DNA of 36,551 nucleotides from Escherichia coli (GTDB lineage: Bacteria > Pseudomonadota > Gammaproteobacteria > Enterobacterales > Enterobacteriaceae). The notes under the pieces were generated by a model. That model saw only the letters and a list, made by a program, of their open reading frames with translations. It searched no databases and had not been told where the DNA came from. The translations under genes were made by a program, and so were the position numbers. Below are positions 2,933 through 7,282 of this stretch, piece by piece (position 1 is the first letter of the stretch; each line of letters begins with the position of its first letter). The stretch lies in the NCBI RefSeq assembly GCF_003334765.1, contig NZ_QOWT01000037.1. One strand, written 5' to 3'.

Positions 2933-2970
2933 GTTTGAGTCCGGCCTTCGCACCTTCGCACCTTCGCACC
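2933..2970. repeat. tRNA-Leu (leuX) 3'-end-like segment followed by 3 tandem copies of cttcgcac; probable island att remnant
   Basis: tttGAGTCCGGCCTTCGCACC resembles the T-arm/acceptor end of tRNA-Leu(CAA) as I recall it (GGTTCGAGTCCGGCCTTCGGCACCA); the 8-mer cttcgcac repeats at 2946-2953, 2954-2961 and 2962-2969. Confidence 0.5.
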
Positions 2971-3172
2971 ATCGGAACATCAATAGACATCAACGGACGT
3001 TTTTTTATGACTGAAATCCGCGCCACACAAGGCTTTTCGCTATTTTTCGCTCAACCTAAGTCAACCTACATCAACTTACTGATGTGGATACAGCTACAGC
3101 TGCGGCTATACCCCGATTCGATAATGTTTGTACCCACACAAAACCCTTGAAAGGCTACAAGGCTGAAATTGT

Positions 3173-3657
3173 CTAAACCATAGAGATGATTTTTATGATC
3201 CAGTCTTTCTCTTGTTGAGATAGTTCCAGTTTGCTCACTCGTGTTAAGAAGGTATTGATCACCTGAACATCCGAATTGGTGAGCCTATTTAATAGAGCGG
3301 GTGGTATACCTTTACTAACAATCGCTTTGCGGTGACTTTCGTAGTTTTTATTACTCATTGTTGATCCTAAAAAATCATTGTATGGCGGCATTGATCGTTT
3401 CCAGCAACCTTTACTTACTCACTTCGAACTGCATCCTCGTAGACAGTTCCACTACAATAATCGAAAAGGCGCGGATGTCCATTCAGGTATCCCGCTAATA
3501 CGTATAGCAATAACAATGGCTTATGCGGCGCGCGCTGTTCACCCTTGTGCCAGATTTTTATATTGGCAATTGCCTGCTGTAGCGATTTACTGGAAGCTAT
3601 TGATATCCCTGGCAGTGAAATAATTGCGATCATGCTCGCAAATTTTCTGCTGTTCAA
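3173..3657 (-). pseudogene. frameshifted gene of unknown function
   Basis: Two same-strand ORFs (3415..3657 and 3173..3391). The downstream frame is open from 3418, immediately after the upstream stop at 3415-3417, so a single frameshift in the ttacttactc tract would fuse them into a protein of about 160 aa. Confidence 0.35.
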
Positions 3658-3736
3658 GCCTGCAAGTGAAGATATATTACCTTGATCTCATTTGTTTTTT
3701 TGCTGCCTGTTCTGAGAACGTATAAGGACATTCTCC

Positions 3737-4387
3737 ATGAATAAACTCCCTGATCATCTTCCGCGGCGGTATATCATCGAAGCTATCCATTTATGGGATG
3801 CGGGAGAAACTCATCAGTTCCAGCCTGCGCGGTTGTATGAGATTGAATATCATGGCCGACGTTACCCCTCGAAGGCGATTGCTGGCATCGCAGCGACATT
3901 GATGACGGGGACGCAATTTACCCCTGCGGATTTCACCGGCGGAATAAAATCTAAATGTGTCAAGCTACTCATAGAGCAGGGATTTCATATTCATCTGGAT
4001 AAAGCCGCTGCGGCTCCCATAGCCGACGTTCTGTTCCCGGATGAGTTGCCGTCGCAGGAGACATACCTTGAAGGTGCGGCGATAAAGGTGACAGTAAACC
4101 GCTATGAACGCGATAAAAAGGCCCGAGATAAAGCGGTCGAACATCATGGATGCCAGTGCAACGTATGCGGTGTTGATCTGGTGAAGATCTATGGTGATAT
4201 CGCTGAAGGCTTTATCCATGTGCATCACCTGGTGCCGCTGTCAGCCATTAAAGAGGATTACCAGCTGGATCCAGTTAATGATTTGCTGCCTGTGTACCCT
4301 AATTGCCATGCGATGTTGCACCGACGCAAACCACCGTTTACGCCGGGGCAGTTAAAAGCGCTGATGGATGCGAATAAATCAAATTAA
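3737..4387 (+). CDS. HNH endonuclease, McrA-like C-terminal nuclease domain with an unassigned ~100-aa N-terminal domain
   Basis: 216-aa ORF; the C-terminus has HHGCQCNVCG...IHVHHLVPLS...YPNCHAMLH, a classic HNH (beta-beta-alpha-Me) motif resembling the McrA nuclease domain. aggaca lies upstream of the ATG. Confidence 0.7.
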   Translation: MNKLPDHLPRRYIIEAIHLWDAGETHQFQPARLYEIEYHGRRYPSKAIAGIAATLMTGTQFTPADFTGGIKSKCVKLLIEQGFHIHLDKAAAAPIADVLFPDELPSQETYLEGAAIKVTVNRYERDKKARDKAVEHHGCQCNVCGVDLVKIYGDIAEGFIHVHHLVPLSAIKEDYQLDPVNDLLPVYPNCHAMLHRRKPPFTPGQLKALMDANKSN

Positions 4388-4394
4388 TGAACGC

Positions 4395-5375
4395 TCACCT
4401 TTCGCGCCAAAACTGCAAAATTGCTTCTACAAACTTGTCAGAAATAATCCCCCGACGGGCTGCCGTGCTGAAATGACTGCTTCGCAGTGCCGTCGTCCAG
4501 TTCTCCGGTGACCGGTACGCTGAACCGTAATATCCCGTGCTTAAATCGTCCGGGTCTTCATCAGGCGCGTTCGTCAGTCCTCTTTCACCTTGTTGCTGGA
4601 AGTCGACGAAAATAATATTGGCTAAAACATTATTTTGATAATTGCCATAAATAACTTCATACGCATGAGGGAAATTTTCTTTCCAGTACCAGGTGGTATC
4701 GCCGCAAAACCACGGTGCGTCAGTAATATTATTAAGCTGAGAATGGTATTGTTTTAGATCCCTACGAAAGGCTTCAACCATATGATTAAAGTGTTGAGGG
4801 TGTGACGCGTAGTCACTGGTCATTAAGTCAAATTCGCCTTGCATCCAGCATACGCCGAGGAATTTGTTATGCGGATTTTTTGCCAGTGCGGCTCGCGTTC
4901 TGCTGACTAAATCCTGGTATAGCGGAGTATCCGTTCCCCAACGACAAGCATCATGGCTGGCTCCGTGCCGTTCTGAATATGTCCCTTCGCTGCCCGCGGT
5001 AAAAGCCGATCCGCCACGGCAACACGGAACGATGAGAACCCCTGCATTATCAGGAATAAAGGGCAGTAATTTCCGTGCTATATGCAGTGCCTGGCCAACG
5101 GTGCCGTACTGTGTTTGATGATTCGTTGCCAGAGGATGGTGATAACCCTGCATATCCTGAACATCGTGTGGGCAGTGAGTCAGTGGAATAATGTCGTTAA
5201 AGTGACATGACGGGCCTCCGGGATGCGTATGCGCAAATCTCGCTAATTGTTTAATTCTGGGATGAGGCGCATCTTCCCTGTCCGGTAATGGCAGTCCTTC
5301 GCCATACGCCATGGCATTAGACTGACCAGCAACGGTAAGAATATAGTAATAATCAGGCGATATTATTGCGTTCAT
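4395..5375 (-). CDS. nanS: 9-O-acetyl-N-acetylneuraminate esterase
   Basis: ORF 4395..5402 matches NanS/YjhS; start placed at the internal ATG (MNAIISPDYYYILTVAGQSNA...) for a 326-aa product. Confidence 0.9.
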   Translation of the reverse strand: MNAIISPDYYYILTVAGQSNAMAYGEGLPLPDREDAPHPRIKQLARFAHTHPGGPSCHFNDIIPLTHCPHDVQDMQGYHHPLATNHQTQYGTVGQALHIARKLLPFIPDNAGVLIVPCCRGGSAFTAGSEGTYSERHGASHDACRWGTDTPLYQDLVSRTRAALAKNPHNKFLGVCWMQGEFDLMTSDYASHPQHFNHMVEAFRRDLKQYHSQLNNITDAPWFCGDTTWYWKENFPHAYEVIYGNYQNNVLANIIFVDFQQQGERGLTNAPDEDPDDLSTGYYGSAYRSPENWTTALRSSHFSTAARRGIISDKFVEAILQFWRER

Positions 5376-5439
5376 ATAAATTTCGCGTAATTGAAATGAC
5401 AAATTGATAGCAGGGCCCCTTTACCGGGGCCCTGAAGCG

Positions 5440-6546
5440 TTAGTTTTGTACTGTGACTTTATTATCCTTCACAGAAATTAAAACTGAATCCATCACTGCT
5501 TTGCCGCCTGCAGTTTCACCGCCAATAATTAATAAACTATTATTCCAGGGCAATGATACTCCGTAGGCCCGACCTTGCGATAATTCACCCGATTTATCCC
5601 ATTTCCCGTTATACCAAAGATGAATATCAGCGCTATATGATTTTTTCAGGCCTTCATGCGCATAGTTCTTACCGTTCTGGTAATTTTCTCGTGAACCTTT
5701 GAATCCGGCCCCTCCAGCAAATATAAGAGAATCATTGCTTATCCCCGCAAAACCGCCAGCGACGCCATCTGGTGATGAGACGGGATCAAGCTTATTCCAT
5801 TTTAAATTATCACCGGTGAAGTCAAGTTCAAATACGGCATCCGTTCGCAATCCTGGTTTGGCTTCGCCATTAATAAGCCAGGTTTTATCACCTTTATTCA
5901 CAACCGCCGCACCAGCCGTTCCGTACCAGGGAGATTCGCCAGCGTAACTCCATTGCTGTGTTGAGGGATCAAAAGACAACAGAAACTTATTGAAGAAATA
6001 ATCTTCTGCTTTTTTGTCAAAATAGTAGGCGTTGATTTTATCTATAGCGGTTGAATCTTTTCCAGCTTCGTTGAGATCTTCAAAATAGCCATTGAAGATA
6101 TTCTGGTTAACACCGCCAGTAACATAAGCCTTGCCGTTGTGTACAAAAGTCACATGGCCCGCCATGCCCATCGGCGCGTGCGACATCAATTTAACCCAGC
6201 TATTGGTTTTGGGGTTGTATTTGTGTACGTCATTAAATACCTGAGTCAAGCCCTCGCTGTTTTTGCCAATGCCGCCAAACACATACAGATTGCCATCAAT
6301 AAATGCAGAGGTTGCTTGATCTCTCGGTCCGCCAGGGAATGCAGCTAACGCTGTCCATCTTTTATCTTTGGCCTGTGTATCCAGCTTGTACCATGCCGTA
6401 CCTGCGCTACCTAAACCAATGTAGACAGTGTCGTTATCAATTGCTCCGGTACCACTTTTAAATGGCACAGGAGTTTCCGGTAATACAGACGCGTTTGCGG
6501 CAAATGAAGCCATTATGATAGTAAGCGCCGTTATTGTTTTATTCAT
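5440..6546 (-). CDS. nanM: N-acetylneuraminate mutarotase (Kelch-repeat periplasmic protein)
   Basis: ORF 5440..6654 matches NanM/YjhT; start placed at MNKTITALTIIMASFAANA (signal peptide) for 368 aa. Confidence 0.9.
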   Translation of the reverse strand: MNKTITALTIIMASFAANASVLPETPVPFKSGTGAIDNDTVYIGLGSAGTAWYKLDTQAKDKRWTALAAFPGGPRDQATSAFIDGNLYVFGGIGKNSEGLTQVFNDVHKYNPKTNSWVKLMSHAPMGMAGHVTFVHNGKAYVTGGVNQNIFNGYFEDLNEAGKDSTAIDKINAYYFDKKAEDYFFNKFLLSFDPSTQQWSYAGESPWYGTAGAAVVNKGDKTWLINGEAKPGLRTDAVFELDFTGDNLKWNKLDPVSSPDGVAGGFAGISNDSLIFAGGAGFKGSRENYQNGKNYAHEGLKKSYSADIHLWYNGKWDKSGELSQGRAYGVSLPWNNSLLIIGGETAGGKAVMDSVLISVKDNKVTVQN

Positions 6547-6565
6547 TGTGACTGTCTCCTGTCTA

Positions 6566-7282
6566 CTACAGTTTAAATGACACACCAATGCGATAACTGT
6601 TTTCCGATAAATTATCTCTGCCGTTGTAAACACCCTGACGGTCAAGGTAGTCATATTCTATGTATGGCGTAATATCGGGCGTCATATGGTATTGTAGAAC
6701 AAATGCATTTTCCGTCGCCCATTTCTTATGGTTTGCATAGCGATAATCGTTCTGTTTACTGTATAGCGTCGTTTGCCATGCGAAGGTGAAATCACTATTA
6801 ATATGGTAAGTGACATATCCATCCCAACGATGAACGTTATCACGAGACATATCACCAGATAAGTCTTGTTGTCGGTAAGCTTTCCAGTCGTAACGATAGC
6901 GAATGCCAAAATTAAGATCTTTTGTCGCGTCCCAGGACAGTTTTACGTAGGGTCCGTAGCGTGTGCCATTGCTGCTAAAATGCGTTAACATTCCCGGGCG
7001 CACCGTCCATTGATCATCAAGTTTAATCGCGTAATTAACTTCAACCTGAACATCATTGAGTGCGGCATTTTCCTTTTTATTATCATGAATGGTATTCCAG
7101 GTATTACTTTCCATGCTTGCCCACCATCCATTTTGCCATCCCTCACTGACTTTGAGTCGAGTCTCATAGGCGTGGCTTCCACTACGATATCCACCACGTA
7201 CGTCCAGTGTCGCAGCCTGAGAAATTAATGGGGACGAAAAGCACAGTAATAATACGCTAGAAAGTATTTTAGCCTTTTTCAT
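6566..7282 (-). CDS. nanC: N-acetylneuraminic acid outer-membrane channel (KdgM family)
   Basis: ORF 6566..7291 matches NanC/YjhA (MKKAKILSSVLLLCFSSPLISQAATLDVRGGYRSG...); ATG at 7282 chosen, GTG at 7291 is an alternative. Confidence 0.9.
   Translation of the reverse strand: MKKAKILSSVLLLCFSSPLISQAATLDVRGGYRSGSHAYETRLKVSEGWQNGWWASMESNTWNTIHDNKKENAALNDVQVEVNYAIKLDDQWTVRPGMLTHFSSNGTRYGPYVKLSWDATKDLNFGIRYRYDWKAYRQQDLSGDMSRDNVHRWDGYVTYHINSDFTFAWQTTLYSKQNDYRYANHKKWATENAFVLQYHMTPDITPYIEYDYLDRQGVYNGRDNLSENSYRIGVSFKL

Follow-up and report, generated by a model that had tools for sequence, protein, structure and literature searches.

The stretch of Escherichia coli DNA analyzed here (36,551 nt, contig NZ_QOWT01000037.1 of assembly GCF_003334765.1; hereafter the window) is chromosomal, is 100% identical to strain H3 and others, and harbors a gene for a small HNH endonuclease whose N-terminal domain is related to the "head" of the type IV restriction enzyme ScoMcrA. 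The gene, referred to as head-HNH, lies between two distinct genomic segments (Table 1). A CP4-type island with YeeU/CbtA, DUF5983 and DUF957 genes occupies the start of the window and ends in a remnant of an attachment (att) site, while nanS (4395–5375, minus strand) is found directly downstream of the head-HNH gene and is followed by nanM, nanC and fimB. An earlier annotation of this DNA (the original prediction) had placed the gene at an island/backbone junction, a position borne out by the att remnant upstream and nanS immediately downstream. The start codon is preceded by a Shine-Dalgarno sequence, AAGGA, read at 3724–3728, 8 nt 5′ of the ATG. On its other side, the gene faces the stump of a divergently oriented SBD-HNH restriction gene.

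Table 1. Features of the head-HNH locus, in window positions.
Feature	Position	Strand	Remarks
att remnant resembling the 3′ end of leuX (TTTGAGTCCGGCCTTCGCACC)	about 2933..2958	+	Right end of the CP4-type island; direct sequence reading
Stump (codons 1–48) of an EcoWI-type SBD-HNH_2 phosphorothioate-dependent restriction endonuclease	3457..3600	-	Start codon ATG changed to ATA; NF045808 match
Divergent intergenic region of the cassette	3601..3736	.	Sequence; comparison with intact cassettes
Palindrome TTGCGA-N6-TCGCAA	3624..3641	.	Some 22 nt before the start of the SBD gene
Head-HNH nuclease gene	3737..4387	+	Open reading frame (ORF), 216 codons plus stop; RefSeq WP_001037967.1 "HNH endonuclease"
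ScoMcrA_N head domain, residues 1–89	3737..4003	+	Secondary structure alpha-beta-beta-alpha-alpha-beta
Flexible linker, residues about 90–119	4004..4093	+	AlphaFold2 predicted local distance difference test score (pLDDT) 48–55 over residues 91–120; no secondary structure predicted
McrA/ScoMcrA/TagI-type HNH (beta-beta-alpha-metal) nuclease domain	4094..4384	+	
Codon 187	4295..4297	+	TAC (Tyr) in place of the family Cys (TGC); one of four zinc ligands lost

The AlphaFold2 model of the protein (40 homologues as input; mean pLDDT 84) consists of two well-folded domains, residues 1–89 and about 120–216. SRA, SBD, EVE and winged-helix domains had been suggested as candidates for the N-terminal sensor, but none of these, nor DUF3427 or the NEco domain of McrA, accounts for it; the domain corresponds instead to the ScoMcrA head. 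Against ScoMcrA (PDB 5ZMM), phmmer gave a match to residues 29–92 (E = 1e-3), a profile built from 33 head domains matched residues 4–92 (E = 3.3e-9), and Foldseek paired the two heads with a probability of 1.0 and a root-mean-square deviation of 2.2 Å. Homologues of the 216-residue product number 1,052, most of them with PF26345 and PF01844, and the precomputed Pfam match of the homologues, PF26345, is ScoMcrA_N. The head-HNH protein is on this basis a member of a catalogued, uncharacterized architecture, ScoMcrA_N (PF26345) plus HNH. None of the PADLOC models describes this architecture; the matches were weak and partial, among them one to a model of McrA-like length (277 positions) that covers residues 122–198 alone. 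Comparisons of the head by hhalign gave no relationship to an Mrr_N-HNH protein and a probability below 1% with an SBD-HNH protein, and the whole protein scored 17.4 bits against NF045808, for which the cut-off is 180.

The C-terminal half is an HNH nuclease domain, as originally claimed, and it groups structurally with the HNH domains of the modification-dependent enzymes EcoKMcrA, ScoMcrA and TagI. It is also similar to the nuclease domains of Cap5, of the cyclic-oligonucleotide-based anti-phage signaling systems (CBASS), and of Cas5-HNH. The domain residues are the histidine pair 163–164, D182, N189, H191 and H195, with the catalytic His/Asp/Asn kept, and the zinc site is formed by C141, C144, residue 187 and C190. 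The description "McrA-like" is consequently apt for the HNH half, but not for the N-terminus, which has no similarity to NEco. Judged by its predicted domains, the protein is outside the McrA family, having no NEco, and outside the SBD-HNH family, having no SBD.

One position sets the window allele apart from its family. Residue 187 is the first cysteine of the second CxxC, is Cys in 39 of 39 other aligned homologues and in 105 of 108 homologues with a readable motif, and is Cys in the alleles of strains STEC384 and TUM14771. It is the sole deviation of the window protein among positions conserved at 90% or more, and leaves this allele with an incomplete CxxC...CxxC zinc site. In the structurally similar HNH domain of TagI, the zinc site is CxxC plus CxxD, and replacement of either CxxC cysteine by alanine drastically lowers activity; the zinc-ligand variants reported for HNH domains are confined to Cys, Asp and His (PMC6212794). 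The window allele is probably weakened or inactive as a result of C187Y.

The neighboring gene had been described as frameshifted. It is instead truncated, ending after codon 48, and its start codon is gone. The stump matches positions 2–45 of the 284 of NF045808, "phosphorothioated DNA-binding restriction endonuclease" (E = 1.7e-16), whereas an intact copy of the gene scores 439.7 bits against the same cut-off of 180. Alignment to the intact E. coli cassette begins at window position 3457 and revealed no further fragment of the SBD gene anywhere in the window. The intact arrangement is found in STEC384, in which both genes are complete, divergent, 136 bp apart and adjacent to an intact nanS. 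Farther out in that strain, roughly 1 kb past the SBD gene, are a gene for a DNA cytosine methyltransferase and a hypothetical gene (positions 919–2058 of the STEC384 locus); strains differ from one another in the variable region on the left side of the cassette. EcoWI is presumably the SBD gene of this very locus, judging by the name of the enzyme, the state of the locus in the genome of KO11FL, an E. coli W derivative, and the agreement in protein size; its source strain could not be confirmed from two papers.

The pair of genes is not confined to E. coli. Intact divergent pairs are found in Klebsiella aerogenes, next to a type I restriction-modification system and an Mrr_N-HNH gene, in Citrobacter farmeri, flanked by genes for sugar metabolism and type VI secretion, and in Klebsiella sp. 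R445, where the neighbors are a Wadjet system and SymE. The K. aerogenes locus (4260–6636) places Mrr_N-HNH, SBD-HNH_2 and head-HNH genes side by side, an array of putative modification-dependent nucleases. Between E. coli, Klebsiella and Citrobacter, the SBD proteins are 78–86% identical and the head-HNH proteins 64–73%. In metagenomes, 26 loci have a head domain of 72–75% identity, and an SBD gene is adjacent in 23 of them. Because the intact pair recurs in several taxa with unrelated neighborhoods, it moves as a unit, and the SBD-HNH/head-HNH pair is an ancestral, mobile, divergently transcribed two-gene cassette. Neither a methyltransferase nor a conserved immunity gene was found within the cassette at the E. 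coli, Klebsiella and Citrobacter loci. A 70-residue convergent downstream ORF was considered as a conserved partner and rejected, the ORFs from two distant taxa being unrelated.

Head-HNH genes without any SBD gene are found in Enterobacter, Pantoea, Raoultella, Pseudescherichia, Sulfurimonadaceae and at other loci, and elsewhere the gene stands beside an EVE-HNH gene or near a different HNH_2 protein and a NUDIX gene. The defense-type contexts at these and the paired loci agree with the earlier view of the locus as a hotspot for defense cargo. When metagenomes were scanned with the head profile, nearly all matches came from E. coli and its close enterobacterial relatives; the scan thus refines the population picture and covers the SBD association within these relatives rather than in distant taxa. 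A second E. coli head-HNH paralogue (P0036), 57% identical and with C187 intact, occurs on hundreds of contigs; it is carried by an integrative element with integrase, TraI and TraG genes and adjoins AbiEi, and an SBD-HNH_2 gene lies 4 kb away.

The head domain itself is widespread. When 1.84 billion cluster representatives (clusters at 50% identity) were searched with a profile, 3,733 head-domain proteins were found at E ≤ 1e-3 and 1,365 at E ≤ 1e-10; they range from some 100 to over 1,500 residues in length and have the head either N-terminal or internal. Among 77 head proteins of at least 280 residues, the accompanying Pfam domains were HNH (31), HNH_2 (17), EVE (13), NOV_C (9), McrB-like AAA_5 (7) and nSTAND3 (6), together with SRA, DUF3427, MrcB_N, AspBHI_N, Mrr_N and NUDIX; one protein (P0127), for example, has the order X-head-EVE-HNH. 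These partners are the building blocks of modification-dependent restriction. In many cases the head is an additional module beside an established reader; in head-HNH proteins it is the sole non-catalytic domain.

Counts across 5,426 complete E. coli genomes (a feature being present at 80% coverage or more) give the SBD-HNH gene in 1,707, the head-HNH gene in 1,239 and both, as a 1,660-bp cassette, in 326. By subtraction, about 900 genomes carry head-HNH only, the state of the window, and about 1,400 the SBD gene only. The SBD-only state is due to a deletion of about 0.56 kb (window 3711–4281) that leaves the last 106 bp of head-HNH, and roughly 1,900 further genomes match head-HNH below 80%, mostly with this 106-bp-only pattern. 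E. coli K-12 retains a 206-bp SBD fragment and the head-HNH start only. Frameshifted and truncated E. coli head-HNH variants also exist (P0002, P0003, P0006 and P0055), and alleles at least 99% identical and without further disruption are found in 658 genomes. Since over 4,800 genomes still have remnants of the cassette, it appears to be old at this locus and to have decayed independently in many lineages.

The K-12 remnant bears on the expression of the gene. The small K-12 protein YthB (MNKLPAHLSRQNCK...) takes its start codon and first five codons (MNKLP) from head-HNH, and a deletion joins this start to sequence just beyond the stop codon of the gene (K-12 locus 3830–3928); YthB is thus a remnant of the head-HNH nuclease gene. 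YthB protein has been detected by chromosomal tagging (bioRxiv 10.1101/511675), which shows that the start region of head-HNH is competent for expression. The divergent spacer may also contain a control element. The perfect palindrome lies in a 20-mer, AATTGCGATSATGCTCGCAA, that is identical in 13 of 13 fetched loci with an adjacent SBD gene (E. coli, Klebsiella and Citrobacter) and occurs once in the window, while the remainder of the spacer diverges between loci. An operator that overlaps the SBD promoter and a hairpin in the 5′ untranslated region are both conceivable roles for it. The palindrome is kept in the window despite the destroyed SBD gene.

Selection on the gene can be followed after the loss of its neighbor. 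The ratio of non-synonymous to synonymous substitution rates (dN/dS) between E. coli head-HNH alleles is 0.09–0.16. Between the window and TUM14771 alleles there are 12 synonymous and 7 non-synonymous changes, a dN/dS of 0.16 that is based on 19 substitutions and ignores recombination. As both strains have the identical SBD truncation junction, the truncation is most simply older than their split, and the dN/dS of 0.16 since that shared event argues that the orphan head-HNH retained a function of its own.

We propose, with a probability of roughly 55%, that the head-HNH protein is a two-domain, type IV-like stand-alone nuclease, that it is the orphaned half of an SBD cassette, and that the allele in the window is probably impaired. 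The protein would act alone as a restriction nuclease, without a partner methyltransferase. Having no immunity partner, such a nuclease must spare its own Dam+ Dcm+ genome, and since other reader-HNH enzymes are steered to features that their hosts lack, the head most plausibly does the same for this HNH domain. We infer that the head would supply DNA binding, probably to a feature absent from the Dam+ Dcm+ host; that activity may depend on modification; that the HNH domain would cut near the bound target, probably as a dimer like McrA and TagI; and that Y187 would reduce this activity. A modified-DNA- or phosphorothioate-sensing stand-alone nuclease had been put forward before. The modification-dependent type of the HNH domain and the defense contexts fit that proposal, but the link to phosphorothioate comes only by way of the neighbor: the identity of the SBD-HNH gene suggests phosphorothioate as a target, and nothing within the head-HNH protein does.

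Several observations weigh against our proposal. Of the three occupied states in E. coli, that with both genes intact is the least common, and head-HNH has been deleted in many lineages, so that any benefit is evidently dispensable. The selection argument carries the limits of sample size and recombination given above. The head may be an accessory module rather than a reader, since in many proteins it stands beside an established reader such as EVE, SRA or SBD. Finally, residue 187 can be set against the state of the SBD gene. In a sample of 53 E. coli-type loci from metagenomes and viral contigs, C187 occurs with an intact SBD gene at 20 and with a truncated one at 18, and Y187 with a truncated SBD gene at 14 and with an intact one at a single locus, metagenome contig L157 (ERZ773164). 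Because this contig has Y187 next to an intact SBD gene, the substitution is not simply decay after partner loss; it points to recombination between locus variants or to a Y187 older than the truncation.

The alternative that fares best, to which we give perhaps a quarter of the weight, is that the gene is a dead relic: an unrecognized pseudogene that lost its zinc site through C187Y too recently for further decay. The uniform cysteine at this position in the aligned relatives, the truncated partner at 14 of the 15 Y187 loci in the metagenome and viral-contig sample, the frameshifted and truncated E. coli variants, the roughly 1,900 genomes with the last 106 bp only and the bare start region of K-12 speak for this reading. 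However, the ORF is otherwise intact with all other residues conserved at 90% or more kept, the 658 genomes with nearly identical alleles show no further disruption, and variant zinc ligands are tolerated in some HNH enzymes, even though only Cys, Asp and His are documented.

A more speculative and rather improbable view is that the head is an unrecognized reader of DNA modification or backbone chemistry, and that SBD-HNH and head-HNH proteins cooperate as a "split ScoMcrA" that widens or sharpens restriction, with the palindrome perhaps co-regulating the two genes. A stricter version, in which head-HNH is an obligate partner of the EcoWI-type enzyme, as one half of a split ScoMcrA heteromer or as a second nickase, and is hence functionless in the window, we regard as still less probable. 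In E. coli, Klebsiella and Citrobacter alike the two genes stay divergently adjacent, with at least four unrelated neighborhoods represented, ScoMcrA unites head, SBD and HNH in a single chain, and the E. coli paralogue on the integrative element also has its SBD-HNH_2 gene nearby. Yet purifying selection persisted after the shared SBD truncation (dN/dS 0.16), each gene is found without the other in many E. coli genomes (about 900 with head-HNH and about 1,400 with SBD), and head-HNH does without an SBD gene in Enterobacter, Pantoea, Raoultella, Sulfurimonadaceae and others. EcoWI, moreover, is active alone in vitro and in vivo and restricts phosphorothioate-containing plasmids by itself (PMC7461809), and the ScoMcrA head offers no dimer contacts.

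A role outside restriction, either as a homing or packaging HNH or as an effector or toxin in which the head senses a protein or small-molecule signal by analogy with Cap5, is very improbable: the HNH half does resemble those of Cap5 and Cas5-HNH, the head has no demonstrated DNA binding and head domains are also fused to STAND NTPases, but only 8 of 50,697 phage records match the family, all in the HNH half and none over the head, PHROGs matches are likewise limited to the HNH half, a scan of IMG/VR viral contigs found nothing beyond E. coli's own island locus, no terminase, intron or intein context was found for the gene, no conserved signal-generating or immunity partner is present at the loci examined, and the head is predominantly fused to modified-base readers and to McrB-type modules. 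The phage results argue that the protein is not the homing or packaging HNH that the original prediction had set against its own proposal.

Some side observations concern the edges of the locus. The att remnant was recognized only by eye; ARAGORN found no tRNA in the window, and no match was obtained with a 25-mer of the leuX 3′ end when up to 3 mismatches were allowed. A short tandem repeat of a CACCTTCG unit (ccttcgcaccttcgcaccttcgcacc) directly follows the remnant (window 2933–2975 for both), and the segment reaching from the remnant to the SBD stump (2959–3456) contains an unannotated 72-residue ORF without a family match (3173–3391, minus strand). On the opposite side, nanS is an intact ORF of 326 codons that differs at 9 amino acids from the STEC384 copy annotated as intact. 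RefSeq labels its equivalent in H3, TUM14771 and K-12 a pseudogene "missing C-terminus," which looks like an annotation conflict with an overlapping ythB-like ORF. The unfused, 29-residue YthB counterpart in the window (4387–4476, plus strand) overlaps the HNH stop codon and is antisense to the 3′ end of nanS.

For the source strain, a common and already annotated E. coli gene that is probably impaired has modest practical import. The wider significance lies in the head domain, the structure of which has been known since 2018 with no assigned function, and which is widespread and closely tied to type IV restriction architectures. Of the natural contexts in which the head is the sole non-catalytic domain, the E. 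coli head-HNH protein is the smallest, and it thus offers a clean test system for the role of the head. The cassette also shows that EcoWI-type enzymes, which are phosphorothioate-mapping tools, are naturally accompanied by a second nuclease gene, and E. coli provides a natural series for the question of cooperation, with both genes intact, either alone or both decayed. We found no literature on head-HNH proteins, PF26345, these WP accessions or the pairing with EcoWI-type genes; the neighborhood analysis in the EcoWI paper deals with dnd genes only (PMC7461809).

Among known systems, ScoMcrA (Sco4631 of Streptomyces coelicolor; PDB 5ZMM) is a type IV enzyme of 561 residues with the order head-SBD-SRA-HNH, whereas the window protein, at 216 residues, is without the SBD, a phosphorothioate reader, and without the SRA, a reader of 5-methylcytosine (5mC) and 5-hydroxymethylcytosine (5hmC). 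The counterpart of the ScoMcrA SBD at this locus is a separate neighboring gene, destroyed in the window. Enzymes of the EcoWI/SprMcrA type (NF045808) and head-HNH proteins are both small, combine one non-catalytic domain with an HNH domain and travel as a cassette; the window protein differs in being without the SBD (PF26340) and in having an HNH (PF01844) rather than an HNH_2 (PF13391) nuclease. EcoKMcrA (PDB 6GHC), a 5mC/5hmC-dependent enzyme of NEco-HNH architecture, has an unrelated N-terminal domain, and only residues 123–198 of the window protein align, with McrA 199–269. The modular logic and size range are shared with TagI (SRA-HNH), VcaM4I (EVE-HNH) and wH-HNH/HhiV4I, and EcoKMcrA likewise couples a reader domain to an HNH domain. 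Head-HNH adjoins Mrr_N-HNH and EVE-HNH genes in other genomes and, like TagI, VcaM4I and wH-HNH/HhiV4I, is without a cognate methyltransferase and found in defense islands.
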